This document shows positions 20,690 to 56,725 of a DNA stretch of 64,000 nucleotides, in pieces. The stretch is from Candidatus Aenigmatarchaeota archaeon. Its GTDB lineage: Archaea > Aenigmatarchaeota > Aenigmatarchaeia > GW2011-AR5. The stretch is from positions 160,001 to 224,000 of the forward strand of contig JACQID010000004.1 in assembly GCA_016198685.1 (NCBI GenBank), in the 5' to 3' direction. How positions within the stretch are numbered: position 1 is the first letter of the stretch; every line of letters starts with the position of its first letter. The notes under the pieces are model-generated. The model had not been told where the DNA came from. It worked only from the letters and a program-made list of their open reading frames with translations, and made no database searches. The position numbers and the translations under genes are program-made.

Positions 20690-20796
20690 TGGGCCCGACG
20701 GGATTCGAACCCGCGACAGTCGGCTTTCTGCGGGCCCGGTGCCCTGCTGGCACAGGCTTAAAAGGCCGATGCTCTACCAGGCTGAGCTACAGGCCC
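20690..20796 (-). tRNA. tRNA-Lys(UUU) with a 33-nt intron at 37/38 (20726-20758)
   Basis: GGGCCTG/CGGGCCC acceptor, TCGGC-CTTTTA|A-GCCGA anticodon arm after intron removal, TTCGAAT T-loop. Confidence 0.93.
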
Positions 20797-28339: not shown

Positions 28340-28754
28340 GTTATCGGCAAAAATTTAACAGAAGACTATTTAAAACTATAAAATTTAACTACTTTTAAGA
28401 AATAACAGTTTATCCACCGGCTAGTTGGAATAAGCGTGCATTGCAAGAAAGTCCAAAATCAGATAGGAATTTGAGTGTCAACATAGAAGCGGTCGCCATT
28501 TATGCTAATAAGCTTGTGTAAATTACTTGCTTGATGACTGATTACGCACTGTCACTAAAAAAAGCGCGAGAGTTTTCTCAAGCGAACACAAATTATGCAT
28601 GGAAAATATCTGGTGGCGAAAAAAGGAGGAAGATGTTGTCAGATGGCTTTGATAATGTAGTTTATGCCGCCAGTGCAGTCAAGAATAAGTCTGATAAGAA
28701 ATAGAATGCTCATGAATTTCTCGAATTTATATAGGCATTTAATCGTTTTGAATA

Positions 28755-29351
28755 GTGACAATTATGAGAAACGGAAGAAGGGTTAGTTCATTCAACGAAT
28801 ACTTGGAAGCCTTGCCGCCAAAAGAAGCTCATATGGTAGCACAATACAGAAAAATCGCAGGCGTATACAATCTTCTTTGGCATGAAATCACGGTCAGAAC
28901 ATATAACAGCGAATGGAGAAAGGACGGCGTAGGCAGTTGCGGGATTGATAAGGCAACATCCGAAGACTTGCTGGAAGGAAGTTGCGGAAGTAATATAATC
29001 TCACTTCGTGAGAGAAAGAATTACGAGACTCCCGGCCGGAGCATGGCCTGTCCCTATCATAGACCGGATAGAGGCTGCATTCTTGAAGAGCTTAAGAGTC
29101 CAAGATGTCTTGACCATGTCGATTACCGTCATGACGCTGAAATAAAGGAGAGATTTGGCATAGAAGTTCCTGAAATGAGAACGGCGCTCAGAATAATTCA
29201 GCTTGGCGGAAGGAATCCCAAGGAAGGTGACTTTGAACTGAAGCCGCATCTGAATGATGATTTTGTTGAAGAAACATATAGGCAAACGATGGAAATAATA
29301 AACCATGTCAGGAACTTTCCCGTGCTGCATCCAGAAGAACTGTTAATATAA
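28755..29351 (+). CDS. Cys-containing hypothetical protein (YkgJ-like CPxx...GC...PxxC tail)
   Basis: CPYHRPDRGCILEELKSPRCL. Confidence 0.55.
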   Translation: MTIMRNGRRVSSFNEYLEALPPKEAHMVAQYRKIAGVYNLLWHEITVRTYNSEWRKDGVGSCGIDKATSEDLLEGSCGSNIISLRERKNYETPGRSMACPYHRPDRGCILEELKSPRCLDHVDYRHDAEIKERFGIEVPEMRTALRIIQLGGRNPKEGDFELKPHLNDDFVEETYRQTMEIINHVRNFPVLHPEELLI

Positions 29352-29398
29352 ATGCCCCATTATTCATGAGTGCAAAGAATCCAGACATTAATACTTGG

Positions 29399-29410
29399 AT
29401 CCCCTGACTG
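29399..29410. repeat. att direct repeat ATCCCCTGACTG (distal copy)
   Basis: Identical to 44305-44316, the 3' end of tRNA-Tyr. Confidence 0.8.
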
Positions 29411-29493
29411 GGCAGAATGCGGCTATTCTATATGCTTCTCCTGTTTTTTGTATGGCTGGCAGAGTATTTAAAAATCAAAAAGCTGGTTAATCT

Positions 29494-30693
29494 ATGAAGA
29501 AGCTATTAGTTTTGTATTTTTTTATAGCACTTTCTGCTGTAAGCTATGCCGAATGTAGCTATTCTGCTTCAATAGAGACGGAGATTGAGGCTTTAGATAG
29601 TCAAGGGACAACAAACTATCAGTTTCCTACTTTCCGAGAAGATGATTATCTCGCCTTAAAGTGGTTAAGAATAAGAAACACTGGTAATTGCACCTTAGAA
29701 AACCCAGAGTTTTTATTTCAATTACAAAACAATATAGAAGAAAAGGACGAGGTATTCTGCTTTGTCAAGAGTGTATTTACAGTCCCAGAAAACATAACGC
29801 CCGGAGGCATTTATGAAATTAAGAGGTTGCCCGATAAGTTTCAATATAACTACCAAGACTCTTCTGGAAGAGAAAAAAGCTACTGTCCTGAAAAGCTTGA
29901 CGCACCCGGCAGATGGGAAATAAGCATAAAGCCAGACCCTCTTAGTCATAATCCGACAAACCCAGGTGGTTATAGTCTTCTGATTCACGGAAGGCACGTA
30001 TCCAACTCAAGCTTTCGGGTTTACAGCAGTCTTGAGTTGAGTTTAGCAGACGCAGCCAAACAGTCCAATTTTCTTGCTCAAGTGGCTATAATGGCAGCTT
30101 TTTCGGCCATAATAATAACAGTTGGATTGGAGCGATGGAAACAAAAAAAGGAAGAAGACAAACACAAGGAAAAACAAGTTAGCTTGCTAAAATCATTGGC
30201 CTTTGAGATAAGTCAAATAAAAAATAACTCGGAAAGTTTTGACAAAATATTCAAACTAAACGAAGAAAAAATAATGAAGAAATATGGACAGGTTGTAGTA
30301 TCTCAATATCCAATAAGAGCACTGGATGCAGCATTTTACATAAGAAACTTAGATGAGAAAATAGAAGGAAAAACCACTGCACTTTTGAAGAGGAACCTTA
30401 TGAGACTTGAAGATAAAATATGGCTTGTAAATGATAGCTGGCTTCAAGTAAAAAATGCTATGGTCGGTAAAGATTTAGACCATGCTAAATATGTAATAGA
30501 AGAATTCTATAAAAAAATAGACACCCGCTATGGAAAGACTGGAGGCCACGCAAAAACAGATATGGATAATTTAGTAGAAATAATACAGGATTTATTAAGA
30601 AAGCGCTTTGGTATATCAGAGCCTTTGGTTGAAGAAGAGGTACTCTTTGAACTAATGAAACAGAACTCCTATGAAGAAAGGCCTACATCGTAA
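29494..30693 (+). CDS. Single-pass membrane protein: signal peptide, Cys-containing beta ectodomain, TM, helical cytoplasmic domain
   Basis: Hydrophobic segments at residues ~3-19 and ~195-212; AT-rich; TTTAAA box ~25 nt upstream. Confidence 0.75.
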   Translation: MKKLLVLYFFIALSAVSYAECSYSASIETEIEALDSQGTTNYQFPTFREDDYLALKWLRIRNTGNCTLENPEFLFQLQNNIEEKDEVFCFVKSVFTVPENITPGGIYEIKRLPDKFQYNYQDSSGREKSYCPEKLDAPGRWEISIKPDPLSHNPTNPGGYSLLIHGRHVSNSSFRVYSSLELSLADAAKQSNFLAQVAIMAAFSAIIITVGLERWKQKKEEDKHKEKQVSLLKSLAFEISQIKNNSESFDKIFKLNEEKIMKKYGQVVVSQYPIRALDAAFYIRNLDEKIEGKTTALLKRNLMRLEDKIWLVNDSWLQVKNAMVGKDLDHAKYVIEEFYKKIDTRYGKTGGHAKTDMDNLVEIIQDLLRKRFGISEPLVEEEVLFELMKQNSYEERPTS

Positions 30694-30728
30694 ATATTGC
30701 AAATTCCACAAGATTCCCGTCAGGAGCA

Positions 30729-31406
30729 TCAGCGAGGCGGTGGCAGGGCATATAGTGAAGGTTTGCCCGGTGTCTTCACAAGGTGTCCGTTTCGGACAAG
30801 ATTCTCCAAACGCCTATAAAACGCCGTTTCTGACAACCCTATGTATCTGGCATCTTTTGTTGTGACAGAACCCCTCGACCTTACAAAATCAAGGATAGCA
30901 GACTCAGTGAGATATTTTCTTAAAGGAGTAGGCGTAGGGGAGAGCATACCCTTATGGAGAGTGTCCATAGAGGCCATACTGGAAGGAACTTTAATGTGAA
31001 TATCATTGTAGCCTCTGCATCCTCGTGAACTTATCCAGATGGGAATTTCTCCCATTTGAGTAACTCGTAACGTAAACCCCACTGTCCCATGAAAACGCCG
31101 GAAATGAGCTCCCACTTCAGGAGTCTTCAGTTTCATACAGAACATCTTGTAGGAATCTGGGCCCAAATGCTTTTTCATAACTTTCTTCACCTCATTTTCA
31201 TCCAAATCCGTATCAAACGTAACCCGTCCATTAGCGAGGGAAATCATAACCTTGCCTACAGACGGAACATGAAAGCAAACATTCTTTGCCCTGTCCTTGG
31301 GAGACGGTTCTTTCTTCGTTGCGTATTCTTCCCACGTTTCCGCCAAAAGTGCTGAAGCTTCTTTTTCTATCTGCGAAACGTGCCGGAAGCCGTGCTTTGA
31401 CCTCAT
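30729..31406 (-). CDS. Hypothetical protein with a C-terminal winged HTH
   Basis: AILDFVRSRGSVTTKDARYIGLSETAFYRRLENLVRNGHL; ATGA-coupled to the upstream ORF. Confidence 0.7.
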   Translation of the reverse strand: MRSKHGFRHVSQIEKEASALLAETWEEYATKKEPSPKDRAKNVCFHVPSVGKVMISLANGRVTFDTDLDENEVKKVMKKHLGPDSYKMFCMKLKTPEVGAHFRRFHGTVGFTLRVTQMGEIPIWISSRGCRGYNDIHIKVPSSMASMDTLHKGMLSPTPTPLRKYLTESAILDFVRSRGSVTTKDARYIGLSETAFYRRLENLVRNGHLVKTPGKPSLYALPPPR

Positions 31407-31684
31407 ATTTCAGCCTCCTTTAAGACGAGATAGTGGTATGGTCGTATCTCCAGCATTCCCATCTGGCGCATAAGCTTTAGGAATTGGAAGTGCGACTTTT
31501 TCGGTATCCGATAAATTGCGCCCAAGATGTGATAAGCCTGCGAGAACTTCAGCTTGCGGTTAGCCGGGTTGTCTTTTGTGGCTTCCTTAAGCAGGCGTTC
31601 GTGAACATTGACAAGATACTGCCGGGGCAATCCGTCACACTTAAGAGCCGTCAGTGTATTCTTCTTCATAGTTAAGACCGTCAC
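31403..31684 (-). CDS. Small wHTH-like protein (start may be ATG 31669)
   Basis: LKFSQAYHILG...FLKLMRQMGMLEI. Confidence 0.6.
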   Translation of the reverse strand: MTVLTMKKNTLTALKCDGLPRQYLVNVHERLLKEATKDNPANRKLKFSQAYHILGAIYRIPKKSHFQFLKLMRQMGMLEIRPYHYLVLKEAEI

Positions 31685-31791
31685 GAGGCTTTCTCTTGGT
31701 CTCCTTCAGCCATCCCTGAAGGAGCGCCATTGTTTTCTCCATGCCGTCATAGAGGTTACGCCGGTTTTAAGATGTTTTTCACACAAATCTG

Positions 31792-32571
31792 TTGATGGAA
31801 GATTTGCTAAAGGGTTTACCTCCAGATGGCGAAAAAGAAGTAGCTAATCATTTTCTGAAATATGGAAAGTGGATAGGCAACGGAGTAGAAGCCAAAAGAG
31901 TGCGAGAGAGGGCAAACAAAGAAAATATCATAAACTGCCTTAAGGATATCAGGCTTCTGCTTAAATTTGTAAAATCTTCAGAAAGGGATGAAATAGAAGG
32001 GGAAATTTTGAGGCTATTTGTGGTAGCAAACGAAAGCGAACTTCTAAGGAAGTTAAGATATGACCCAAAGTCTATGTTTAACATAGACCGCAATATGAGA
32101 ATGACACCTGCAGAAACGCTTACTTCTGTGCTGATAGATGTTGGAATTGACGACCCGCAAGTCAGGGTATACATAAAATTAAAATTATACAAAGACTTAC
32201 AAACCGACATAAAAGCGGTTACAATGTTTAATCAAATGAGATATGATAAAAAATACACACGACTTAAAAATGTCTTTCTGAAAGTAGTTGACGACATGAT
32301 AGCCAATGGCATGCCAAAGGCGCCATTGCCTAAAGATGTGCAAAGGCATATACTCAACAAGCTTATTTGGACATATAATCTTTTGGAGTTGTCGGACGAT
32401 AAGAAATTTGTTTACCTTACGCCTATAGGAACAAGTCTTTACCACCCTCTTGAATTACAGAAAAAATGGACGAAACCACTGAAAAGGTTTGACAAAGATG
32501 CTTTTGATTCTGGTTTAAGAGCCGCCATTGAAAAGTATCTGCAAGAAATAGGAAAAAATAGTATAAATTGA
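31792..32571 (+). CDS. Hypothetical protein, possible C-terminal wHTH
   Basis: 259 aa ORF divergent from the previous pair; YNLLELSDDKKFVYLTPIG resembles a wing. Confidence 0.65.
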   Translation: MMEDLLKGLPPDGEKEVANHFLKYGKWIGNGVEAKRVRERANKENIINCLKDIRLLLKFVKSSERDEIEGEILRLFVVANESELLRKLRYDPKSMFNIDRNMRMTPAETLTSVLIDVGIDDPQVRVYIKLKLYKDLQTDIKAVTMFNQMRYDKKYTRLKNVFLKVVDDMIANGMPKAPLPKDVQRHILNKLIWTYNLLELSDDKKFVYLTPIGTSLYHPLELQKKWTKPLKRFDKDAFDSGLRAAIEKYLQEIGKNSIN

Positions 32572-32617
32572 AGTGCGGCGCCCAGTCCGCCCTTTAGTAG
32601 GAAAAATCCGTCACATT

Positions 32618-33103
32618 ATGACTATTCAAGAAGCTATCATAGACAGAAGGCGTAAAGTCCTGAGCCTTTATATGAATAGATTCACGGTTACCGAAATAGC
32701 CCGCATACTCGGCTGGAACAGGGACACGATAACTGGCGACCTTAACTGGATTCGCCGGGAGCACGAAAACGTAGACCTGAAAGGCGAGAACCCTATTACC
32801 GACTTTCTACTCAGGAACGCCGACCAGTATAAGCGAGCAGTGAAAGAATACAGGCATGCCGATAAGTCAATGGAACGCCTCCATGCCATCCGTATTATGA
32901 AAGAGTTGGATAGGGAAAGAATAGAGACAATCAAAAGTATAGGGATAGAGCTAAAGGTACCACAAACATTGGAAACACTGCGAAAAGAGAGTTTAGCGGA
33001 AATAATACCTAAATTAATGGCAGATATACAAAAAGAGGAAGAGGAATGGCAACGAAAGAGGCAATCCGTCTTAGAAGGCAAAAGGTTCTCGCCCTGTCGC
33101 TGA
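32618..33103 (+). CDS. HTH protein, terminase small subunit-like (paralogue 1)
   Basis: RRRKVLSLY..FTVTEIARILGWNRDTITGDL, followed by a helical region ending RLHAIRIM..L.RER...GI. Confidence 0.6.
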   Translation: MTIQEAIIDRRRKVLSLYMNRFTVTEIARILGWNRDTITGDLNWIRREHENVDLKGENPITDFLLRNADQYKRAVKEYRHADKSMERLHAIRIMKELDRERIETIKSIGIELKVPQTLETLRKESLAEIIPKLMADIQKEEEEWQRKRQSVLEGKRFSPCR

Positions 33104-33492
33104 ACAAGGTCAGCATAGACCAAATAGCCCAAAGGCTCGGCTGGGACAGGCATACCATCTGGAACGACATCGTGGCCACCCGTCGGGAATACGCCAAGAA
33201 GGAGCTGGAAGGCGAAGACCCTGTTACTGACTACCTAATGACGAATGCCGAGCTTTACAGAAAAGTGGCTAAGATAGAGAGGGAAGCCACGGACGACAAT
33301 GTAAGGCTCCGGGCCATAAGGGAGATGCGGGAGCTCCAGAAAGACCGCTTTGAGAAGCTGCTAATTACTGGCATAGTGGACAAGAAGAAACCTGAACTGC
33401 CAGCGAGGAAATATATAATTCAGTGGGAAACTGACCCGAAAGAGAAAATGAAGGAAATTGTAACTGATGCCGAGAAGAGAGGAGAGATATAG
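33046..33492 (+). CDS. HTH protein, terminase small subunit-like (paralogue 2)
   Basis: RRQKVLAL..VSIDQIAQRLGWDRHTIWNDI...DDNVRLRAIREM..LL.TGI, C-terminal YIIQW strand. Confidence 0.62.
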   Translation: MATKEAIRLRRQKVLALSLNKVSIDQIAQRLGWDRHTIWNDIVATRREYAKKELEGEDPVTDYLMTNAELYRKVAKIEREATDDNVRLRAIREMRELQKDRFEKLLITGIVDKKKPELPARKYIIQWETDPKEKMKEIVTDAEKRGEI

Positions 33493-33552
33493 GCACTTTT
33501 CACTTTCTTGACGCTCTCTCAACACATAAAAAGCCTTTTTCCCAGTAATTTT

Positions 33553-34221
33553 ATGGCATTCCAACTCTCTCCTTCTTCTATCAACCTCATGTTTGAATGC
33601 GAAAAATGCTTCTGGCTCCAGATAGTCAAAAAGGTTAGGCGGCCTGCTGGCATATTTCCTTCTCTTCCATCCGGGATGGACAGGATTCTCAAGCAGCATT
33701 TTGACCGCTTCGCAGCCAAAGGCAAACTGCCGCCGGAACTGAGGGACAACGAGCATACAAAAGGCATTGCACTGTTCAGTGATATGGACGCCTTGAACGT
33801 ATGGCGGAATAACAGGAAAGGATTGACCTATACTGACTCTGGCACAGGCATCCTACTCAGAGGAGCAGTAGATAATATTCTGACGAAAGACGGCAAGCTT
33901 ATAGTTCTGGACTACAAAACCCGCGGCTATCCGTTGAAAGACGATACCCATGAACATTATGCCAGCCAGATGCATCTGTATAATTACCTGCTGAAGCAGA
34001 ACGGCCACGATACCGAGGATTTCGCCCTTCTGCTTTTCTATCATCCTAATACTGTAACAGAAGCAGGAGAAGTAATCTTTAACACAGATCTAATAAGAAT
34101 GTCATCAAACGCCCAAGAAGGCGAGAAAATCTTCCAGAAAGCGATAGGCGTCCTGCAAGGAGAGGAGCCGGACGCCTCAAATAACTGCGGATTTTGCGAG
34201 TTTCGGAGTAATGGCAACTGA
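33553..34221 (+). CDS. PD-(D/E)XK nuclease, Cas4/AddB-like, with four Cys
   Basis: LSPSSI..CEKCF, GAVDNI...VLDYKT, QMHLY, CGFCEF. Confidence 0.88.
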   Translation: MAFQLSPSSINLMFECEKCFWLQIVKKVRRPAGIFPSLPSGMDRILKQHFDRFAAKGKLPPELRDNEHTKGIALFSDMDALNVWRNNRKGLTYTDSGTGILLRGAVDNILTKDGKLIVLDYKTRGYPLKDDTHEHYASQMHLYNYLLKQNGHDTEDFALLLFYHPNTVTEAGEVIFNTDLIRMSSNAQEGEKIFQKAIGVLQGEEPDASNNCGFCEFRSNGN

Positions 34222-34311
34222 TTAAACTTAAGACAAACCGTAATTATAGTGATTTAGATAGCAAGGCGAAAAAGTTAAAGGAAGTTTGTAGAGGCTATAG
34301 AAGAGTGAATA

Positions 34312-36330
34312 ATGAGGAGAGCAGAAGTGAATAATTTTCAGGAAAAAGTAACGTTTATTTGGGACTTGGCAGATTTACTGAGAGGAGTTTATAAAAGAAA
34401 CGAATATCAGAAGGTGATACTGCCTTTTACTGTATTAAAAAGATTCGATTGCGTTCTTGCCCATTCAAAAAAGACACTTCTCGAATCTTACAACAAATAT
34501 AAGAACCAGTTTGAAAACTTGGAGCATATTCTTCAGGATTCTGCCAAAGATAAAGACGGAAATCCTCTTGGCTTTTACAACTATTCAAAATACGATTTTA
34601 GAACGTTGCTAGAAGATCCAGAGCACATAGAACAGAATCTTTTGCACTATCTTGATTCTTTCAGCAAAAATGTTCAGGATATATTTGAGAACTTCTCCAT
34701 AAAAACCCATATAGCCAATTTAGCCAAGTCTGACTTACTGTTTATTTTAATCAAAAAGTTTTCAGACTCAAAAGTTGACTTGCATCCAGATATTGTTTCT
34801 AATCATGAGATGGGCATGATTTTTGAGGAACTGATACGAAAATTTGCAGAACAATCCAACGAAGAAGCAGGAGAACACTTTACGCCAAGAGACGTTGTTG
34901 AAGTGATGACTAAACTTATTTTTGTAGAGAATGGAGTTCATCTGAAGAATAAAGACATTATTAAGACAGTTTACGACCCAGCATGTGGAACAGGAGGTAT
35001 GCTGACAAGCTGCAAGGAGTTTATCAAAAAGCTGAATAATTCTGTTGAAATTGTTTTGTATGGGCAAGAAGTCAATCCAGAGATATACGCAATATGCAAG
35101 GCTGACATGCTAATGAAGGGCGAAAATGACGACAATATTAAAGGAGCTTACAGCACGCTTTCAAAGGACAAGTTCAGAGACATGAAATTTGATTTTATGA
35201 TTTCTAATCCTCCTTACGGTAGAAAATGGGAACAGGATGAAGCAGATGTAATCAAAGAAGCTGAAAGAGGCTTTGAAGGAAGATTTGGAGCAGGACTTCC
35301 ACGTATAAACGACGGGCAACTCCTCTTTTTACAACACATGGTTTCAAAAATGAAAGTCAAGGAAAAATCAAGAATCGCTATTATTACAAATGGCTCTCCT
35401 TTATTTACAGGCGATGCTGGTTCTGGGGAAAGCGACATCAGAAAGTGGATGATTGAAAATGATTATATTGCTCTTCCAGACCAGTTATTTTACAACACAG
35501 CAATAAAAACTTACATCTGGGTATTGACCAACAAGAAGCCAAAAGAAAGAATTGGTAAAATCCAGCTCGTAGATGCAACTTCGAGATTTAAGAAAATGCG
35601 TAAAAGCTTGGGCTTCAAAAGACATATTTTAGGGGAAGACGATATTAAAGAAATACTCCAGTTTTATGAAAAGTTTGAAGCTGGTAAACATGTCAAGATA
35701 TTCAATAATGAGGAATTTGGGTATACTAAAGTAATCATTGAAAGACCCACGCAGTTAAACTACCAAGTCAGTGATGAACGGCTTGAGGATATGTATTCTG
35801 TCAGTGCCTTTGTAAAGCTTGCCGAAAGCAAAAAAGAAAACCCAGAACTGAAACTAAAAGAAGAGGAAGAAGGCAAAAAGAAGCAGAAAGAAATAATAGA
35901 AGCTCTAAAGACAGTCGGCAATAAACTGTATAAAAATTTGGATGAATTTGAAGCGAAGGTAAAACAAGCATTACATATATTTGACTTGAAACCAAACTTT
36001 ATCAAGAGCATAATTTTGGCGTTGTCCGAACATGATGATACAGCAGAATATGTTCTGGACGTCAAAGGCAAAAGACAGCCTGATTCTAACCTACGGGACT
36101 CTGAAAAAATACCGTTGGGGCAAGATATAGAGAAATATTTTGTAAAAGAAGTCAAACCATATTACCCAGATGCATGGATGGACAGGAGCAAGGACAAAGT
36201 TGGCTATGAAATAAACTTCACACAGTATTTCTATAAGTATCAACCCCCAAGACCTCTTGAGGAGATAGAAAGAGACATAAAGAAAGTGATTAAAGAGATA
36301 CAGGAACTCATTAAGGAGGATGTTGAATGA
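34312..36330 (+). CDS. hsdM: Type I R-M N6-adenine methyltransferase subunit
   Basis: AGEHFTPRDVV, YDPACGTGGML, NPPY. Confidence 0.97.
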   Translation: MRRAEVNNFQEKVTFIWDLADLLRGVYKRNEYQKVILPFTVLKRFDCVLAHSKKTLLESYNKYKNQFENLEHILQDSAKDKDGNPLGFYNYSKYDFRTLLEDPEHIEQNLLHYLDSFSKNVQDIFENFSIKTHIANLAKSDLLFILIKKFSDSKVDLHPDIVSNHEMGMIFEELIRKFAEQSNEEAGEHFTPRDVVEVMTKLIFVENGVHLKNKDIIKTVYDPACGTGGMLTSCKEFIKKLNNSVEIVLYGQEVNPEIYAICKADMLMKGENDDNIKGAYSTLSKDKFRDMKFDFMISNPPYGRKWEQDEADVIKEAERGFEGRFGAGLPRINDGQLLFLQHMVSKMKVKEKSRIAIITNGSPLFTGDAGSGESDIRKWMIENDYIALPDQLFYNTAIKTYIWVLTNKKPKERIGKIQLVDATSRFKKMRKSLGFKRHILGEDDIKEILQFYEKFEAGKHVKIFNNEEFGYTKVIIERPTQLNYQVSDERLEDMYSVSAFVKLAESKKENPELKLKEEEEGKKKQKEIIEALKTVGNKLYKNLDEFEAKVKQALHIFDLKPNFIKSIILALSEHDDTAEYVLDVKGKRQPDSNLRDSEKIPLGQDIEKYFVKEVKPYYPDAWMDRSKDKVGYEINFTQYFYKYQPPRPLEEIERDIKKVIKEIQELIKEDVE

Positions 36331-36426
36331 TGACAAAAAGACAAACTACCCATAGACAATTAACAAATTTAGCAAGAGGAAGGCAGATATTGTTTCAAAA
36401 TCAATTAAGACGGAGCGGAAAAGAAA

Positions 36427-37710
36427 ATGAAACTCAAAGCCTATTCTAAATATAAGAAATCTGGGATTCAGTGGATTGGCGATATACCTGAAGGCTGGTC
36501 ATTAGAAAGGTTTAAGCTTAGATTTAAAAGTAAAAAAGGAAAAATACCCGATAATCTCGATGTTACCAATGGCGAGGGTTACTTACCCTATTTAAGTATG
36601 GAATACTTAAGGGGCAAAGAAGAAAATGCTCAGTTTTCAAACGATCCTACTGCATTAAAAGTTGAAGACCATGATTTATTGTTATTATGGGACGGATCAA
36701 ATGCAGGGGAATTTATTTCTGCTAAAAAAGGGATCCTATCTTCTACAATGGTGAAACTTAACATACAAAGAATGAATACTCAATATTGCAAATATTTATG
36801 TTCAGGTTTTGAACCCATGCTAAGAGATTTAACTGTTGGAATGGGAATTCCTCATGTAAATGGTGATGTTTTGGGTAATATTCAAATCCCAATTATAGGT
36901 ATTGGAGAACAAAAAAAAGCAACTTCTTTTCTCGACTCCAAAACCTCACAAATCTCCAAAACAATCTCAGCCGACAAACAACTTATAGAGCTTCTCAAAG
37001 AAAAAAGAACTGCTTTAATCAATCACGTTGTAACGAAAGGCCTGAATCCTAAAGCAAAAATGAAAGATTCTGGGATTGAATGGATTGGAGAAGTGCCTGA
37101 AGGGTGGGAAGTTAAAAAAATTAAATTTATTGGAAATATTGTTTTAGGGAAAATGCTTACCGACAAAGAACATGATGGTCATATACAAAAACCATATCTA
37201 CGAGCACAAAATATTCTATGGGAGAAGGTTGATGTTTCTGATGTCAAAGAAATGTGGTTTTCATCTGGAGAGTTAAAAAGATTTAGATTGAAAAATAATG
37301 ATTTACTTGTATCGGAAGGTGGGGAAGCTGGAAGAACAGCTCTATGGAAAGGAGAAATAGATGAATGTTATATTCAAAATTCGGTGCAAAAAGTAACGTT
37401 AGATGAAGGATGTATTCCAAATTATTTTCTGTATTTATTTGAGTCTTATGGTAAAAGGGGCATTTTTGATTCAGTTGTGAGTAGGGTTAGCATAGCTCAT
37501 TTAACAAGAGAAAAACTAAAAGAGATAATTTGCACAGTCCCTCCAAAACAAGAACAAGCCCAAATAGCAAAATTTCTCGACAAAGCAACCTCAAAAATAG
37601 ACCAAACTATCCAGAAAATTGAGGCAAAAATAGAGCTTCTTGAGGAATTTAAAAAATCATTAATACATCATGTTGTTACAGGCAAGGTAGATGTAAGGTG
37701 TGAAATATGA
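36427..37710 (+). CDS. hsdS: Type I R-M specificity subunit
   Basis: Two SGIxWIGxxPEGW repeats, two TRDs, LKEKRTALI and LEEFKKSLIHHVVTGK. Confidence 0.96.
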   Translation: MKLKAYSKYKKSGIQWIGDIPEGWSLERFKLRFKSKKGKIPDNLDVTNGEGYLPYLSMEYLRGKEENAQFSNDPTALKVEDHDLLLLWDGSNAGEFISAKKGILSSTMVKLNIQRMNTQYCKYLCSGFEPMLRDLTVGMGIPHVNGDVLGNIQIPIIGIGEQKKATSFLDSKTSQISKTISADKQLIELLKEKRTALINHVVTKGLNPKAKMKDSGIEWIGEVPEGWEVKKIKFIGNIVLGKMLTDKEHDGHIQKPYLRAQNILWEKVDVSDVKEMWFSSGELKRFRLKNNDLLVSEGGEAGRTALWKGEIDECYIQNSVQKVTLDEGCIPNYFLYLFESYGKRGIFDSVVSRVSIAHLTREKLKEIICTVPPKQEQAQIAKFLDKATSKIDQTIQKIEAKIELLEEFKKSLIHHVVTGKVDVRCEI

Positions 37711-39245
37711 AAAAGAAATTAAAACAAGTCGCTGAACTAGAAAATCAGGAGCAAGAATCCGATTTTTCTGCCATTAGTTCTAAACTAGATATCAAAGAGC
37801 CGACTAAGAGAAAAATGAAAGATGTTCATAGAGATTTTAAAGAGGGCAATATAATTCTCCAACCAGAATTTCAAAGAGATTTTATATGGACAAAAAATAA
37901 GCAAGCGGAATTAATTAAATCTATATGGAGAGGGATTCCTTTACCGATGTTTTATTTTTCAGTAGAGCGTAATGGAAAATTCGAGGTAATTGATGGGCAA
38001 CAAAGATTAACTACTATATTTGGATACATTTCATCTCAACTGATAAAAGACAGAAGGATAAGGGATAAATTAATAAAAAAAATAAAAATTAAAGATGAAA
38101 ATAAAAATAATATTTCCAGAGATGATATAATAAAAAGAGTTCTAGAGGATACAAACATTTATTGCGTAGAAATTCCTGAAGTTGGTTTGAATACAAATGA
38201 TAAGTTTGAAATATTTAGATCGTTAAACCTTGGAGCCACTCCTCTTAAATTTCAAGAAATAAGAAATGCAATTTTTCAAAAAGAAATACCTCATCTTAAT
38301 AAATCATTAAAGAGCGGAGCACAAAAAATAGAAAGATTGACAGGTATGAAAAATTTTAGAATGACTTTTGAGGACCTTGTTTTACGATTTTATATCATAA
38401 ATGAGAAAGGATATGATAAAAGAGTATCTGACCAGCTTAAAAACAATGTTGAGCTAAAGAACATATTTACTGAAGAAAAAATTAAAACAATAAATTCTAA
38501 ATTTAATAGATTTATTAATTATATGAACAAAGTCTTTGGTAGAAAATCCTTTCAAACTTTATCTAAAATAAAAGAAAATAAACGGCTTCCAGATAATAAA
38601 TGGGAGAAACACGCTTTTTCCGCTAAGATTAATCAAGGTTTATTTCACTTGTTTTCATATTATATCCCTAAATATTCTAAGCATCGATTAAATAAAAAAA
38701 GTGATAAAAAGATTAGAGAAGAATTTGTAAAGTTATTAAAAAATTCAAGGTTCCTGAATTTAATAACTGGTTCTGGAACAGATTCTACAAAAAATATTAA
38801 AAAATCGTCATCTCTTTTTGAAAAGTTATTCTTAAATGTATGTTTCGGGGACTGGTACAAAATCGATAAAAGAAATATCCCAAGAGAGCTTAAAACGACC
38901 ATGATAGAAAATGTTCCATTTTGCTATCTGTGTTATGGTAAACTAAAAAGGATTGAACATATAGAAAATTTTTCTGATATTCATGGAGAACACATAAAAT
39001 CTTTCAAAGAAGGGAACAAATCAACTTACAGAAATATTCTCTTAGCCCATAAAAAATGCAACTCTGAAAAGTCTGCAAAACGCCTTGAGGATTACAGAAA
39101 ACAGGATAAATCAATCCTAAAAAGAAAGAAAAATAAACAAAATATTAAAGAATACATAAGGTGTTTAAAAGAATGGAATACATATTACCCACTACACGCC
39201 TACAAAAAATTAGTTAAATATGCTAAGCGAGATAAAAAACTGTGA
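37707..39245 (+). CDS. DUF262 (ParB-like) plus C-terminal HNH nuclease, GmrSD-like
   Basis: PEFQRDFIW, VIDGQQRLTT, LNLGATPL; CYLC..HGEHI...NILLAHKKCNSEK. Confidence 0.88.
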   Translation: MKKKLKQVAELENQEQESDFSAISSKLDIKEPTKRKMKDVHRDFKEGNIILQPEFQRDFIWTKNKQAELIKSIWRGIPLPMFYFSVERNGKFEVIDGQQRLTTIFGYISSQLIKDRRIRDKLIKKIKIKDENKNNISRDDIIKRVLEDTNIYCVEIPEVGLNTNDKFEIFRSLNLGATPLKFQEIRNAIFQKEIPHLNKSLKSGAQKIERLTGMKNFRMTFEDLVLRFYIINEKGYDKRVSDQLKNNVELKNIFTEEKIKTINSKFNRFINYMNKVFGRKSFQTLSKIKENKRLPDNKWEKHAFSAKINQGLFHLFSYYIPKYSKHRLNKKSDKKIREEFVKLLKNSRFLNLITGSGTDSTKNIKKSSSLFEKLFLNVCFGDWYKIDKRNIPRELKTTMIENVPFCYLCYGKLKRIEHIENFSDIHGEHIKSFKEGNKSTYRNILLAHKKCNSEKSAKRLEDYRKQDKSILKRKKNKQNIKEYIRCLKEWNTYYPLHAYKKLVKYAKRDKKL

Positions 39246-39251
39246 AGAAAA

Positions 39252-41837
39252 ATGACAACTGACACATCAGAAAAAGCATTTCAGAGGGATATTGTTGCTC
39301 ACTTGGTTAGTACTGGCTACCATGAAAGAAACACCCATAATTTTGATAAAACCGTTTGCCTCGACCCGGAATTGGTATTGAAATTCATTCAAGATACACA
39401 GGAAAAGGAATGGACAAAGTTCCAGAAAATCTATGGTGACAAAGCTGGGCAAAAGTTCTTTTATCGGCTTGTAACAGAAATTGAGAAAAAAGGCACTATA
39501 AATGTCCTAAGAGATGGGTTCAAGGATGTCGGGTGCTATTTCAAGCTTTTCTATCCAAAACCTAACAATAAGAAAAACCCTGATTTATTTGAGAAGTTTG
39601 GCAAAAATATCTTCTCGGTTGTTGATGAATTGGAATACGAAAAGAAAGAAAAAGGAAATAGGCTGGATTTGGTCATTTTCATAAACGGGCTTCCTATAAT
39701 CACAATAGAGCTTAAAGATACGTTCTCTCAGGGCGTGGAAATAGCAATAAAGCAGTATAAGGAGAATAGAGACCCAAAGGAAAAAATATTCCAAAATTGT
39801 TTTGTCCACTTCGCTATGAGCGATGAAAAGATATTCATGGCGGCAAAGCTGGAAGGCTGGAAAACGAGATTCCTGCCTTTCAATAAGGGCATTGAAAATC
39901 CGACAGTCCAAAACGACTACAAGACTTCCTACTTGTATAACGATATTTTACAGATAAATAAGCTGTCGAAGCTCATAGCCAATTTCATCTATGTGGAGAA
40001 AGATGGCGATGAAGACAAACCAATTTTCCCAAGATACCACCAGCTTGACTGTGTTAATAAACTTCTGGAGGATGCAAAACCAAGCAAAAACTATCTCATT
40101 GAACACAGTGCGGGAAGCGGGAAAACAAAAACTATCGCATGGCTCGCTCATGGATTGATAAACAAATTTGACCAGCAGGATGACAGAATCTATGATATGG
40201 TTATTGTCATTTCGGACAGAAGGGTTATAGATAAACAGTTACAGAATCAAGTCCAATCTATTGAAAAGGTCAAAGGAATTGTAGACGTAATTGATGAGAA
40301 AAAGACTTCGCAAGACCTTAAAGAAGCCCTGAAGACTGGAAGCAATATTGTAGTAACAACGTTGCAGAAGTTCCCTTACATACTGGAAGAAGTCAAGGAT
40401 TTGCCGAAAAGAAAATACGGGGTTATCATTGATGAAGCCCATTCATCCCAGTCAGGGACTTTGGCAAGAAAAATGAAGCAGATTTTGAGCACGAACAGTC
40501 TTGAAGAAGCCGAATCTATGGAAAGGGATATTGATGACGAGGTTGAGGATGAGATTCTTGAGGAAGTCGAATCATTCAGAAATTTAAAGAACATAAGTTT
40601 CTTCGTTTTTACGGCAACCCCAAAGAATAAAACTCTCGAAATGTTTGGAGTAAAAGATAATAGAGGAAAATATCACCCATTCCACACGTACTCAATGAAA
40701 CAGGCTATAGAAGAAGGGTTTATTCTCAATGTCCTTGATAATTATCTCACTTATGAGACATATTTTAAGCTTGTCAAGAAAATTGTAGACGACCCAGAAT
40801 ATGATGAAAAGAAAGCAAAAAGACTTCTAAGGAATTTTGTTGAAAAGCACCCCCATGCTATAATGAAAAAGACGGGGATTATGCTTGACCATTTCATGAA
40901 TTCTACAATCAATAAAATAGGGGGCAAAGCAAGGGCAATGGTAGTTACACGGTCAAGATTGCACGCCGTTCTTTACAAAAGGGCTTTTGACAAGGCAATA
41001 AAAGAGAACAATTTACCAATAAAAGCTTTGGTTGCTTTCACTGGCGTTGTAAAGCATGACGAGCAGGAATATACAGAAAGCTCGATGAATCAACTACCCC
41101 CAAAAAAGACTATTGAAAATGCCTTTGAGGAAGAACCCTATAGAATCCTGATAGTTGCAAATAAGTATCAGACTGGATTTGACCAGCCTCTTTTGCATAC
41201 TATGTATGTTGACAAGATGTTAAATGGAATTACGGCAGTTCAGACATTATGCAGAATCAACAGGATTCATCCTCATAAAAATGATACACTGATATTCGAT
41301 TTTGCGAATAAAACGGAAGTTATACAGAAGGCTTTCCAACCATACTATGGAGAAACTTACCTCAAGGAAGGTACAGACCATCATAAACTATACGAATTAC
41401 AAACAAAACTTCTCGATTATCAGGTTTTTGATGAGTCGGATGTCGATGCCTTTGTAAGGGCTTGGAAAAAAGAAGAATCACAGCCAAAATTGCACAATAT
41501 TTTAAGTCCTGTCGTTGAGGAATTTAAGAAAAAGGAGAAGAAAGGGCAAGTAGGATTCAAAAAAACTATGAAGAGGTATCAAAGTATATACGCATTCCTG
41601 TCTCAATTGATTCCGTTTTCTGATGTACGCCTTGAGAAGATATACATATTTAACAAATTCTTGACCAAAAAACTTCCTTCAATAAATAACCCTCTGCCTT
41701 ATACAGTTTTGGAAGATGTTGATATGGATTCCTATAAAATTGTCAGTAAAGGGAAGAAGGAATTCACGCTTCAGATTGAAGGTGAATTGACGCCCATATC
41801 CGCGGGAGCTGGGAATATGCTCCTAATGTCAACATGA
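39252..41837 (+). CDS. hsdR: Type I R-M restriction subunit (main part)
   Basis: RLDLVIFINGLPIITIELK, HSAGSGKT, IIDEAHSSQ, FTATP, QTGFDQP, QTLCRINR. Confidence 0.96.
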   Translation: MTTDTSEKAFQRDIVAHLVSTGYHERNTHNFDKTVCLDPELVLKFIQDTQEKEWTKFQKIYGDKAGQKFFYRLVTEIEKKGTINVLRDGFKDVGCYFKLFYPKPNNKKNPDLFEKFGKNIFSVVDELEYEKKEKGNRLDLVIFINGLPIITIELKDTFSQGVEIAIKQYKENRDPKEKIFQNCFVHFAMSDEKIFMAAKLEGWKTRFLPFNKGIENPTVQNDYKTSYLYNDILQINKLSKLIANFIYVEKDGDEDKPIFPRYHQLDCVNKLLEDAKPSKNYLIEHSAGSGKTKTIAWLAHGLINKFDQQDDRIYDMVIVISDRRVIDKQLQNQVQSIEKVKGIVDVIDEKKTSQDLKEALKTGSNIVVTTLQKFPYILEEVKDLPKRKYGVIIDEAHSSQSGTLARKMKQILSTNSLEEAESMERDIDDEVEDEILEEVESFRNLKNISFFVFTATPKNKTLEMFGVKDNRGKYHPFHTYSMKQAIEEGFILNVLDNYLTYETYFKLVKKIVDDPEYDEKKAKRLLRNFVEKHPHAIMKKTGIMLDHFMNSTINKIGGKARAMVVTRSRLHAVLYKRAFDKAIKENNLPIKALVAFTGVVKHDEQEYTESSMNQLPPKKTIENAFEEEPYRILIVANKYQTGFDQPLLHTMYVDKMLNGITAVQTLCRINRIHPHKNDTLIFDFANKTEVIQKAFQPYYGETYLKEGTDHHKLYELQTKLLDYQVFDESDVDAFVRAWKKEESQPKLHNILSPVVEEFKKKEKKGQVGFKKTMKRYQSIYAFLSQLIPFSDVRLEKIYIFNKFLTKKLPSINNPLPYTVLEDVDMDSYKIVSKGKKEFTLQIEGELTPISAGAGNMLLMST

Positions 41838-42175
41838 AGTTGTCCAAGATTCTCAAAGACCTGAATGACGCATTCGGGACAGACTTTACAGAAGATGATA
41901 GAGTATTTTTGGGTAGGGTAAAGGATAATATGCTACAAAATGAGGATTTGCTCAATAAAATGGAGCACAACTCTAAGGAAAATGTAAAGGCAGTTTTTGA
42001 CAAATATTTCAATCAGGAAATGACAAAGCTACTAAATAGTAATTTGAAACTTTACAAAAGAATAGTAGAAAATGACAAATTGAAGACGAAGCTTAAATCA
42101 GACTTATTTAGTTTGGTTTATTTTGAATTTAATAAAAGAAAAAAGAAAACTCTCAGAGAGGAAGAAGTAAAATAA
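41834..42175 (+). CDS. HsdR C-terminal domain in a shifted frame (split gene or frameshift)
   Basis: LSKILKDLNDAFGTDFTEDD matches HsdR C-terminal tails; ATGA overlap with hsdR. Confidence 0.75.
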   Translation: MKLSKILKDLNDAFGTDFTEDDRVFLGRVKDNMLQNEDLLNKMEHNSKENVKAVFDKYFNQEMTKLLNSNLKLYKRIVENDKLKTKLKSDLFSLVYFEFNKRKKKTLREEEVK

Positions 42176-42189
42176 TTTAGGTGTTTTTC

Positions 42190-42402
42190 ATGGGCGGAAG
42201 AAGTGTAGGCGGCCGGGCGGCGAACATTCGTTTACGCCAGAGAATCGCCCACCAGTCAATGAAGGAGCTTATGGAAGAGGCGGCGGTACGGGAAAAAACG
42301 CCGCCGTCACGGGACGTTAATAAGTGCGAGGCGTGCGGGTTTAAGGCGCGGTATAAATTTATACGATGTCCTGAATGTGGGGAAGTGAGGAAGAATGGCT
42401 AA
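42190..42402 (+). CDS. Small double-CxxC zinc-ribbon protein
   Basis: CEACGFKARYKFIRCPECG. Confidence 0.7.
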   Translation: MGGRSVGGRAANIRLRQRIAHQSMKELMEEAAVREKTPPSRDVNKCEACGFKARYKFIRCPECGEVRKNG

Positions 42403-42562
42403 AGATGATACGATATCAGGCGCTGGCATACTCCTTGGGGTTTTGGGACTCCTATTTTTAGCAGACGCATTAGATAAGAAAAGATGTTCTCATTGTGGGA
42501 ATTATAATACTAAACAAAATACAATATGTAATTATTGCGGATGGGGCTGGACGATTTTATAG
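42395..42562 (+). CDS. 55-aa TM plus double-CxxC microprotein (not in the ORF track)
   Basis: MAKDDTISGAGILLGVLGLLFLADALDKKRCSHCGNYNTKQNTICNYCGWGWTIL; GTGAGG SD. Confidence 0.7.
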   Translation: MAKDDTISGAGILLGVLGLLFLADALDKKRCSHCGNYNTKQNTICNYCGWGWTIL

Positions 42563-42813
42563 GCAAAAACGCTACCCCGACAGCACGGCTGGCTTCTACA
42601 TTCATAAGCATCGCTATCGTATTATTTATATTTTTCAACGCTATGCCTACGGAACTTAGAAACGGAGCGTTCTACTTTCTCCTGTTCCATTTAGCAAACC
42701 ATATATATGTCGGGTATTCAGACCTTAAAATTCACACATGTTATCGTTGTGGTGAAGAATTAAGGCCGAGAGTTAATTATAAAAAACACATCTGTAAAAA
42801 GCATGGAGCTTAA
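42541..42813 (+). CDS. Small 2-TM protein with a C-terminal CxxC..H.C motif
   Basis: CYRCGEEL...HIC. Confidence 0.6.
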   Translation: MGLDDFIGKNATPTARLASTFISIAIVLFIFFNAMPTELRNGAFYFLLFHLANHIYVGYSDLKIHTCYRCGEELRPRVNYKKHICKKHGA

Positions 42814-43028
42814 GCTGATATGTTTCTTGCGGCTGCTGGTATAAAGAAAACTAACCATGCGGCGATGCCTATCAGAAAAAGCGCTATGCCCCATGTAGTA
42901 AAAAAGTTAGACATTTCTGCGATAAAAGGCTTTGAAATTCCACCGGTGAATAAGAAAAATATACCACTAGCAATAAGTAGACCTCCTATACTCTTTGGTT
43001 GAAATATGACTTTTAGCCAATCAGACAT
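42810..43028 (-). CDS. 72-aa two-TM membrane protein
   Basis: Two hydrophobic helices; same strand as int and 24 bp downstream of it. Confidence 0.6.
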   Translation of the reverse strand: MSDWLKVIFQPKSIGGLLIASGIFFLFTGGISKPFIAEMSNFFTTWGIALFLIGIAAWLVFFIPAAARNISA

Positions 43029-43052
43029 TTGATTATTCGTCTATAAGTCTTT

Positions 43053-44249
43053 TTAAGTCTTAGCTTCACTGAACAGCCCCTCATACTTCTTCTTTTCGGC
43101 TATCTTGGTGAAACGCTTCTTGATGTGCGGGAACTCCTCGCCTAATGCGCTTAGCGTCTCAAAGAGATAGTCGTCCAGAAGGGCTTTTTTGTTCGGTTCG
43201 TCTAACGGCAGGTAGCATTTGCCGCACAGCTTTGAGGCCGGGTCATTCGGCTGCCCGCAGCGCTCGCATGGCTTTACAGAGATTACTGGTTTGCCATTGC
43301 TTCCGTTTAGGGTTATGCCGTGCTGCTTCAGTATGGCTTCGTCCATGCTTTTTCCGCTCAGGTGGGTGTAAGTGCTTATGGTATCGGATTTGCGCCAGCC
43401 GAAGAATTCCTTCATTTGCCTGTCTGTGAATGTGCTGGCCATGAACGTGGCTCTGGCATGGCGGAAGGCATGTGGATTTACGCTCTTGTGTATATCCGCT
43501 TTTTGGGAAGCTTCTTTCAGCATCTTACGAATTAAGCCGTATGTCAGGTATCTGTCACGGCCTCTCACTCTTTCATGAACCCACAGATATGCTTCAGGGT
43601 CGTTCTTGTATGGATGGCTGTCCAGCCAGTCTTTCAGCGCCGGCGTGGAAGCTACTATGCGTATTCTTCTGTCGCCTGTTTTCCCAGAGACTCGCAGGAC
43701 GGCTCCGTATTCGTCAAATGCTACGTTCTTCATTTTAAGGGGCAGAAACTCGCCTACCCTTGTGCCAGACTCGTAAAGGCAAAGAATGAAAGCCCTGTCC
43801 CTTATGGTTCTTGCGTTTATGGCTATCGCCTTTATCTCGTCTTCCGTCAAAACGTCGTCAGGCAGCAGCGTCTTGGAACTGTTCTTTATCTTAATCCATG
43901 ATACGTCTTCCGTATCCTTGCCCCTGAGAAATTTGTAGTATTTCCGTAAAAAGACTTTGAAATCCCGTTTTGTCCAGTCTGCCCATCTGGTGCTGGCTGA
44001 TATGTCCGCCACGAGTTGGATTATGTCACTCTTGTTAGCGTTTCGTAGTGGTTTCTTCAACATAGTGGAAAGTGTTTTCATACTGTAGAAATACTTGGTT
44101 ATCCTGCCTTGTGTTATGCCCTCTGCCATCAATTGGGTATAGAAGCGTTGTGCATCCTCTTTGTCTTCCTCGTAAAGCGGGGAATCGCTTCCGAGGTATT
44201 GTTTCGCCACTTTGGCCAAGGTCTTCTCGTAATTGTGTATGTTTCCCAT
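43053..44249 (-). CDS. int: Tyrosine integrase with a C-terminal zinc ribbon
   Basis: ESGTRVGE (R), GKTG (K), HAFRH (HxxR), FFGW, YTH (Y); CERC..CGKC. Confidence 0.96.
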   Translation of the reverse strand: MGNIHNYEKTLAKVAKQYLGSDSPLYEEDKEDAQRFYTQLMAEGITQGRITKYFYSMKTLSTMLKKPLRNANKSDIIQLVADISASTRWADWTKRDFKVFLRKYYKFLRGKDTEDVSWIKIKNSSKTLLPDDVLTEDEIKAIAINARTIRDRAFILCLYESGTRVGEFLPLKMKNVAFDEYGAVLRVSGKTGDRRIRIVASTPALKDWLDSHPYKNDPEAYLWVHERVRGRDRYLTYGLIRKMLKEASQKADIHKSVNPHAFRHARATFMASTFTDRQMKEFFGWRKSDTISTYTHLSGKSMDEAILKQHGITLNGSNGKPVISVKPCERCGQPNDPASKLCGKCYLPLDEPNKKALLDDYLFETLSALGEEFPHIKKRFTKIAEKKKYEGLFSEAKT

Positions 44250-44257
44250 CGTTTCAT

Positions 44258-44285
44258 CCTCTCCTCACTGCTCTTTAAGGAGAGG
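44258..44285 (-). promoter_or_regulatory. Hairpin between tRNA-Tyr and int that pairs with the int SD
   Basis: CCTCTCCT-N12-AGGAGAGG perfect 8-bp inverted repeat; the 3' arm is 8 nt upstream of the int ATG. Confidence 0.55.
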
Positions 44286-44304
44286 CATTAGGAATAGCCT
44301 TATC

Positions 44305-44316
44305 ATCCCCTGACTG
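44305..44316. repeat. att direct repeat ATCCCCTGACTG (tRNA-Tyr copy)
   Basis: Covers the last 11 nt of tRNA-Tyr plus 1 trailer nt. Confidence 0.8.
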
Positions 44317-44418
44317 AGATTTGAACTCAGAACCTCACCGTTTCTGGCAGAGTGCTGACATTCTTGCGCATTCAGCGCATGACTACAGCGGTGCGCTCTA
44401 CCGTTGAGCTATCAGGGG
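44306..44418 (-). tRNA. tRNA-Tyr(GUA) with a 41-nt intron at 37/38 (44342-44382)
   Basis: C1:G72 acceptor CCCCTGA/TCAGGGG, A73, CACCG-CTGTAG|A-CGGTG. Confidence 0.93.
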
Positions 44419-44534
44419 TGTCTTACAAATAAGATAGTGAAGGAATTAAAGGTTTTCATAAAGGCCCTACAGTCAGAAATACGGTCTCCTATATATTGGT
44501 AGGTCTTGCCTAATAATTAAACGGAAAAACTTAC

Positions 44535-56624: not shown

Positions 56625-56725
56625 AGCCCCGGGCGAGAGTTGAACTCGCGACCTTTACCTTACCAAGGTTTAGCGACGATGTCTTATGGCATTCGTTAAC
56701 GCTCTACCAACTGAGCTACCGAGGC
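56625..56725 (-). tRNA. tRNA-Thr(GGU) with a 28-nt non-canonical intron at 28/29 (56670-56697)
   Basis: GCCTCGG/CCGGGGC acceptor; TT|ACC-TTGGTAA-GGTAA arm after intron removal. Confidence 0.92.

Follow-up and report, generated by a model that had tools for sequence, protein, structure and literature searches.

The stretch of DNA analysed here, called the window throughout, is 64 kb long and comes from contig JACQID010000004.1 of Candidatus Aenigmatarchaeota archaeon. It carries a 14.9-kb element, placed at 29399–44316 from the sequence, which is integrated at the 3′ end of a tRNA-Tyr gene and encodes a tyrosine integrase and a cassette of restriction-modification (R-M) genes. The element is probably a cryptic integrated element (CIE), that is, an integrative defence island without transfer machinery of its own, and it represents a new family within a known class of integrative elements. 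The host is a DPANN archaeon of the Aenigmatarchaeota, since a 99%-identical contig of a congener (G003), recovered from Rifle groundwater, is assigned to Candidatus Aenigmatarchaeota. Little has been mapped so far of the mobile elements of DPANN archaea, and this locus has clear boundaries, an empty site for comparison, a sister element and a further element that shares its attachment (att) geometry. A genome of less than 1 Mb (935 kb in eight contigs, 94% complete) spends about 1.6% of its DNA on this island, which encodes its own integrase and carries, as its main load, restriction systems that can be exchanged. The locus defines an orphan backbone (the family of a winged helix-turn-helix, or wHTH, protein), a very short att core at tRNA genes that contain introns, and a set of Cas4-like, type I R-M and Zn-ribbon genes that recurs as a unit.

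The element can be modelled as two layers. A backbone layer of about 5–6 kb would comprise the left arm, a divergent regulatory module, three small membrane or Zn-ribbon proteins and the integrase; in the divergent module, the genes for a 93-aa protein and the 225-aa wHTH protein would face the genes for a 259-aa protein and one or more helix-turn-helix (HTH) proteins. A cargo layer would consist of a slot directly after the HTH gene, filled with a self-contained defence cassette, and of a membrane protein at the left end. By restricting incoming DNA, the element would benefit both its reduced-genome host and itself. Family scans covered 18 open reading frames (ORFs) of the element with Pfam, 10 with PHROGs and 10 with NCBIfam, and PADLOC was also used, all with a cut-off of E ≤ 0.01. 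Among the ORFs scanned, these collections return no terminase large subunit (TerL), portal, capsid or conjugation family, no casposase signature gene, and no primase, replicase or replication family. The first-pass annotation of the window had likewise recognised no TerL, portal, capsid or conjugation genes. Its description of a tRNA-targeting, integrase-bearing mobile element with defence cargo in a DPANN archaeon is confirmed by the insertion, the host and Pfam, and the genes that it listed are all present: two HTH paralogues, a Cas4-like nuclease, a type I R-M system, a DUF262–HNH nuclease and Zn-finger microproteins are found with Pfam, and the wHTH is seen in the structure model of the 225-aa protein.

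Insertion at the 3′ end of a tRNA-Tyr gene

The features that define the insertion are as follows.

44306–44418, minus strand: tRNA-Tyr(GUA) gene, the integration target (Rfam RF00005, 56.2 bits, model positions 1–71)
44305–44316, plus strand: att core, tRNA-proximal copy of a 12-bp direct repeat (exact match)
29399–29410, plus strand: att core, distal copy of the repeat and left boundary of the element (exact match)
43053–44249, minus strand: tyrosine integrase, 398 aa (PF00589, E 2.4e-22; DZR)
29411–29473, no strand: left arm within the element (conserved in the metagenome contig L030 at about 90% identity, followed by divergence)
28416–29398, no strand: block of about 1 kb to the left of the element, also absent from the congener G001 (99% identical in G003)

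The target gene is a tRNA-Tyr gene because its anticodon is GUA (the loop, as read from the sequence, is CU-GUA), and it contains an intron or insert of about 42 nt after the anticodon loop. With default settings, ARAGORN reports zero tRNA genes in the window, whereas Rfam identifies four full-length tRNA genes, each with an insert (20690–20796, 44306–44418, 56625–56725 and 63654–63788). All four are 101–135 nt long and thus intron-containing. ARAGORN misses them because every tRNA gene here has an intron, and the search for tRNA-based att sites in the Aenigmatarchaeota lineage needs covariance models.

The 12-mer ATCCCCTGACTG occurs exactly twice in the 64-kb window. The proximal copy spans the last 11 nt of the tRNA and one trailer base, and the left copy, 14.9 kb away, falls in an intergenic gap. 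The integrase gene lies on the strand of the tRNA gene and is separated from the tRNA 3′ end by 56 bp; both this arrangement (by PF00589 and Rfam) and the matching repeat had been read correctly in the first-pass annotation. The catalytic domain of the integrase is XerA/XerC-like (NCBIfam XerA, 118 bits, below the equivalog cut-off) and is followed by a C-terminal zinc ribbon (CxxC...CxxC, residues ~328–349) that is also present in the homologue at the start of L052. The gene has a G+C content of 0.48, and the enzyme is predicted to be active.

The empty site is found in a congener (G001, C2; 72–91% DNA identity), in which the counterpart of window 28308–28419 runs straight into the tRNA (window 44301–44456) and then into the right-flank gene; G001 thus lacks about 28420–44300. 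On the left, the 99%-identical G003 contig covers 26385–29385 and ends 14 bp before the left repeat. Positions 1–146 of the metagenome contig L030 match window 29328–29473 at 92%, a stretch that includes host flank, the repeat and the 63-bp arm. In the proposed mechanism, the tyrosine integrase would move the island, and the element or its ancestor would have inserted site-specifically by recombination between a short element core and the final ~11 nt of the tRNA-Tyr gene. Such an insertion would have preserved the tRNA and produced a 12-bp duplication.

In comparison with G001, the inserted sequence begins at about 28416 and not at 29399. The intervening block (28416–29398) contains an orphan 198-aa ORF (28755–29351) with no Pfam match, and a degenerate stretch resembling a tRNA 3′ end is found at ~28413–28425. 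This block is probably the remnant of an earlier insertion at the same tRNA-Tyr gene.

Homologues of the integrase lie 48–171 bp from tRNA genes in four kin loci. In one locus from another genus (L042, from G020:C2), the integrase is 37% identical and adjoins a tRNA gene, at the 3′ end of which a 12-bp repeat stands in the same register (L042:19010–19073) and recurs 11.5 kb away in an intergenic gap (L042:7497–7508). L042 is therefore independent support for a very short att core. The cargo of this unrelated ~11.5-kb island includes RNase T-like, Holliday-junction-resolvase-like, trypsin-like and RNase HII-PIN proteins and no virion genes. The remaining backbone genes of the window element were not found in the integrase-homologue loci from eight kin genomes, where other cargo is encoded (OLD/AAA_15, TIR, Schlafen, AbiEii-like proteins and various nucleases).

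The defence cassette and its exchange

The cargo of the element consists of the genes below, of which the first six form the cassette.

33508–34221, plus strand: Cas4-like PD-(D/E)XK nuclease with four cysteines, at the head of the defence cassette (PDDEXK_1, E 1e-13)
34312–36330, plus strand: hsdM, methyltransferase of a type I R-M system (N6_Mtase, E 1.9e-60; HsdM_N)
36427–37710, plus strand: hsdS, specificity subunit (Methylase_S, E 2.2e-29)
37707–39245, plus strand: GmrSD-like nuclease with DUF262 and HNH domains, between hsdS and hsdR (GmrSD_N, E 3.2e-24; HNH)
39252–42175, plus strand: hsdR, split into an 861-aa body (39252–41837) and the C-terminal ~100 residues (41834–42175) (Pfam)
42181–42402, plus strand: 73-aa Zn-ribbon protein that closes the cassette (Zn-ribbon matches)
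29494–30693, plus strand: 399-aa membrane protein, variable cargo at the left end (from sequence)

The genes hsdM, hsdS and hsdR lie in one operon, which identifies a type I R-M system. In alignments with annotated HsdR proteins, the 113-aa ORF at 41834–42175 matches their final 100 residues; it shares the bases ATGA with the 861-aa ORF, and the split site has no homopolymer. In the GmrSD-like protein, GmrSD_N covers residues 45–190 and HNH residues 420–457 (E 3.8e-6), and the protein also matches PADLOC NsnA (E 2e-53). The Cas4-like nuclease has one CxxC motif near the N terminus and another at the C terminus, and it is matched by PADLOC Cas4 (E 1.5e-9) and phrog_31195 (E 1.4e-40). The gene is not regarded as a CRISPR adaptation gene because cas1 and cas2 are not nearby. 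A search of IMG/VR with the Cas4-like protein gives nothing, and tblastn against phage and archaeal-virus records gives nothing meaningful.

The same backbone can carry a different defence system. In the sister copies (L030–L038), type III Mod (PF01555) and Res (PF04851) genes directly follow HTH-2 and the left-end genes are different, whereas the left junction, the wHTH gene (44% identical), the 93-aa gene (77%), the 259-aa gene (32%) and HTH-2 (97%) are held in common with the window. Two cargo variants have been seen so far. The exchange extends to the left end, where the 399-aa gene is absent from L030 and other genes take its place. The 399-aa protein has a signal peptide, one transmembrane helix and a helical cytoplasmic tail; weak structural matches are the only indication of an Ig/CARDB-like ectodomain. 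It has no family match in Pfam, PHROGs, NCBIfam or PADLOC, and its Atlas comparisons do not exceed a TM score of 0.36.

Base composition also separates the cassette from the backbone. The R-M genes have a G+C content of 0.28–0.37, compared with 0.44 for the backbone core, 0.48 for the integrase gene and 0.45 genome-wide, and the cassette was probably acquired separately from the backbone. The GmrSD-like gene has the lowest G+C content of the element (0.28, as against 0.34–0.37 in its hsd neighbours), which suggests that it entered the R-M operon from a further source.

A second defence locus in the same genome shows which genes belong to the cassette. On contig C1 (30.7–38.3 kb; L056:8765–16928), a Cas4-like gene 78% identical to that of the element stands in front of hsdR, hsdS, a 190-aa ORF, hsdM, a 122-aa ORF and a Zn-ribbon gene whose product is 61% identical to the 73-aa protein; a PLD/NgoFVII-like nuclease and a Dam-like methylase follow. 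No integrase was found near this locus. Because of this paralogous cassette, the Cas4-like and Zn-ribbon genes of the element are assigned to the R-M cassette and not to the backbone. In this lineage, both may serve type I R-M systems as accessory components.

Backbone genes and alternative readings of the element

The remaining genes of the element, together with a candidate regulatory site, make up its backbone.

30729–31406, minus strand: 225-aa core protein with a C-terminal wHTH (five homologues; AlphaFold2, or AF2, model)
31403–31684, minus strand: 93-aa core protein encoded upstream of the wHTH gene (77% identical in L030 and L033)
31701–31724, no strand: perfect 9-bp inverted repeat in the divergent intergenic region (from sequence)
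31792–32571, plus strand: 259-aa orphan core protein that heads the rightward operon (32% identical to a 250-aa gene product of L030)
32618–33103, plus strand: HTH-1, of HTH_23 type (Pfam HTH_23, 23.3 bits)
33046–33492, plus strand: HTH-2, conserved core HTH protein (Pfam HTH_23; AF2 model)
42395–43028: three small membrane proteins, of 55 aa (one transmembrane segment and a Zn ribbon; plus strand), 92 aa (one transmembrane segment and a Zn ribbon; plus strand) and 72 aa (two transmembrane helices; minus strand) (from sequence; Zn_ribbon_3)

The backbone core has a G+C content close to that of the genome, and its most widely conserved gene encodes the 225-aa wHTH protein. The five homologues of this protein are 44–51% identical, and one of them comes from an Aenigmarchaeota metagenome-assembled genome. 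The distribution of the gene is patchy, with 1 of the 70 species genomes of the order containing it. The loci of four of the five homologues were examined, that of P0011 being left out. One homologue (L050:3873–13842; Logan DRR358088) adjoins a dense defence cluster made up of a 511-aa orphan, Schlafen/AlbA_2, NucS-like and GmrSD_N proteins and a 1193-aa R-M enzyme of MmeI/Eco57I type; another (L052) has, at a distance of 4 kb, an integrase of the same family as that of the element, and a third (L054) adjoins EF-1alpha. In the AF2 model of the window protein (pLDDT 78), the C-terminal wHTH resembles IdeR, FeoC and Z-alpha domains (Z 8–9.7). The N-terminal ~150 residues fold, with good model confidence, into an alpha/beta domain in which His5, His101, His106, Cys130 and His137 are invariant, and only weak fold matches are found for this domain (TBP, RepDE and aminomethyltransferase, E ≥ 0.012). 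It could be a new metal-binding or nuclease/initiator domain, and the whole protein may be a regulator or a replication initiator.

The 93-aa protein matches no family above the cut-off in Pfam or PHROGs. The 259-aa protein has only two matches among 1.84 billion representatives searched with HMMER, both in the same element family; it has no informative Atlas neighbours and no match in IMG/VR. The 9-bp palindrome between the two arms of the module is a candidate operator, and the HTH and wHTH proteins would regulate or replicate the element.

The first-pass annotation had called the two HTH proteins similar to the small terminase subunit (TerS) and had read the element as a satellite of the type of the phage-inducible chromosomal islands (PICIs). 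In this view a helper tailed virus would induce the element, and the HTH proteins would act as TerS, redirecting the packaging motor of the helper to the element DNA. The size of 14.9 kb, the integrase at a tRNA gene, the divergent regulatory module and the defence cargo in a hotspot-like slot all agree with it. In addition, HTH-1 scores above the cut-off of Pfam Terminase_5 (22.7 versus 20.3 bits), and the AF2 model of HTH-2 (pLDDT 74) begins with a three-helix HTH, continues with a hairpin of two helices and ends in a disordered tail, a domain order that resembles the general layout of TerS. However, the Terminase_5 match of HTH-1 is confined to residues 25–65, which are the HTH itself, and HTH_23 scores higher there; HTH-2 does not match Terminase_5 at all, and the terminase matches of the HTH proteins in PHROGs (E 0.002–0.008, with TerS at 0.008) cover only the HTH region. 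The resemblance claimed for the pair thus comes down to an HTH match of ~40 residues, and the arrangement seen in the HTH-2 model is a common one.

Comparisons by sequence and fold do not bring the HTH proteins closer to TerS. A profile of the four HTH sequences retrieves nothing relevant from the PDB, and Foldseek with the HTH-2 model finds nothing in the PDB below E 0.5 and no TerS. In BFVD the same model matches unnamed phage HTH proteins (E 3.8e-3 to 0.1), and a few rows named TerS follow at E 0.26–0.6 with TM scores of 0.18–0.31. The best hits of an exhaustive VIA search with this model (Z 5.9) are DeoR, the DNA-binding domain of DnaA and helical-hairpin proteins. No homologue of HTH-2 outside the element family was found in 5.8 billion proteins, in phage records (tblastn) or in IMG/VR (with the single protein and with the HTH profile), and the only match to the HTH profile in metagenomes was a contig that was already known.

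The gene content of the relatives and of the host also speaks against a satellite. HTH-1 and HTH-2 are 42% identical, and HTH-2 is 96–97% identical on nine short metagenome contigs from other samples. The sister elements have a single HTH gene. The N-terminal half of HTH-1 matches this single gene and only its C-terminal third matches the 115-aa ORF upstream of it in the sister, and L030 has no counterpart of the HTH N terminus there; HTH-1 is a local duplicate specific to the window. Terminase_6N, TerL_ATPase, HK97 capsid and portal have no match in the 94%-complete host genome, no TerL gene lies beside the HTH genes, and the searches of phage records, IMG/VR and the 5.8 billion proteins showed no homology of the HTH proteins to TerS of known viruses. 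The element likewise has no recognisable primase, replicase or capsid-remodelling genes. There is no positive support for TerS in the HTH pair beyond generic architecture, and a PICI-like satellite that depends on a helper is very improbable. A variant in which the helper is an unknown Aenigmatarchaeota virus, the HTH protein a highly diverged TerS or packaging-specificity factor and the R-M slot a satellite-borne anti-virus hotspot is equally remote. If true, it would give Archaea, and DPANN hosts among them, their first PICI-like satellite. The present evidence does not extend the satellite lifestyle to archaeal tailed viruses.

The small membrane proteins bear on a second alternative, in which the element is a complete or decayed provirus of an undescribed type of archaeal virus whose structural proteins are among the orphan and small membrane ORFs (for instance, the 72-aa and 399-aa proteins). 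Archaeal spindle-shaped and pleomorphic viruses have genomes of ~7–17 kb, integrate into tRNA genes and have small hydrophobic capsid proteins, and the size and tRNA integration of the element fit them. The 72-aa protein with its two transmembrane helices (42810–43028, minus strand) is encoded directly downstream of the integrase gene, and the element also encodes a membrane protein with a signal peptide. Conversely, neither an AAA+ morphogenesis ATPase nor a match to a virus family was found with Pfam or PHROGs, and tblastn of the 72-aa protein against phage and archaeal-virus records gives nothing meaningful. The 399-aa gene is missing from the sister element and thus counts as cargo and not as core, and the R-M cassette occupies more than half of the element. 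A provirus is therefore quite unlikely. The similarity of the 72-aa protein to the small hydrophobic capsid proteins of spindle-shaped archaeal viruses is limited to size and topology, and neither this protein nor the 92-aa ORF has a family or virus match in PHROGs or PADLOC.

A third possibility is an integrated plasmid, for which the 225-aa wHTH protein or the 259-aa orphan would serve as replication initiator and the excised circle would replicate autonomously. The wide conservation of the wHTH gene is in keeping with this role, and wHTH proteins initiate replication in some plasmids and are the proposed Rep proteins of small CIEs (PMC6563490). The Foldseek match of the wHTH protein to the rolling-circle initiator RepDE (E 0.012) points in the same direction, but it is weak (probability 0.4, TM score 0.22) and tied with TBP and other folds. 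Moreover, neither iterons nor origin-like repeats were found in the element, and 0 of the 14 related contigs are circular. A plasmid is thus an unlikely explanation.

Several points weigh against the reading of the element as an integrative defence island. The 12-bp core is short and, taken alone, within chance, and a second, unrelated 12-mer of the tRNA region is likewise repeated in the window; the att repeat is nevertheless credible because its register, the empty site of G001 and the end of the G003 contig back it. That empty site is seen in a congener and none is seen in the same species, an excised circle was not seen either, and neither the attP junction nor 31-mers of the left arm are present in IMG/VR. 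The left core of the sister copy L030 mismatches at 2 of the 12 positions, so the insertion may be old. It may then have been inherited vertically, with cargo exchanged by recombination and not by repeated integration. The split of hsdR may be real, a sign of R-M decay or an assembly error, and the activity of the R-M system is uncertain because of it. Finally, the seven orphan backbone ORFs could hide replication, packaging or structural functions.

Relation to described integrative elements

The closest described class is that of the Thaumarchaeota CIEs. These elements have a median size of 17 kb, the integrase is their only signature gene and a replication gene is often absent; genes for type I R-M subunits and Zn-ribbon proteins rank among the most frequent ones (Krupovic et al., 2019; PMC6563490). 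The window element has the features of the class, namely an integrase beside its target, att repeats, absence from the site in kin and, among the ORFs scanned, no signature genes for virion formation or transfer. Like the Thaumarchaeota CIEs, it has a XerC/D-like tyrosine integrase as its sole signature gene, a size near the median, wHTH, Zn-ribbon and type I R-M genes, and no identifiable replication, virion or conjugation genes. Unlike them, it resides in a DPANN host with a genome of under 1 Mb, and its backbone has no homologues in other phyla. Its att core is only 12 bp long and lies at the extreme 3′ end of an intron-containing tRNA, and a defined slot accommodates alternative R-M systems.

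The element can also be compared with known satellites. PICIs of the type of the Staphylococcus aureus pathogenicity islands (SaPIs) are about 15 kb long and combine an integrase and att sites with a divergent regulatory region and accessory or defence cargo. The window element is similar to them in its size, integrase and att sites, divergent regulatory region and defence cargo, whereas it has no recognisable primase or replicase, no demonstrable TerS and no genes for capsid-size redirection. In Archaea, the satellites described to date, pSSVx and pSSVi, and the recently proposed SRCEs combine a plasmid Rep with genes for the major capsid protein of spindle-shaped viruses and/or an AAA+ ATPase, and the hosts of SRCEs include DPANN (nanohaloarchaeal) archaea (Zhou et al., bioRxiv 10.1101/2025.02.15.638363). 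The window element resembles these as a small archaeal element, and dependence on a helper virus has been proposed for them; unlike them, it has no detectable genes for Rep, the spindle-virus major capsid protein or the AAA+ ATPase.

The organisation of the cargo has its nearest parallel in Bacteria. Although the host is archaeal, the backbone is unrelated and only two cargo variants have been seen, the element resembles the hotspots of P4-like and P2 prophages and of integrative islands, in which a fixed backbone offers one slot to interchangeable and unrelated defence systems. In the element, this slot holds either a type I R-M system with GmrSD-like and Cas4-like proteins or a type III R-M system.

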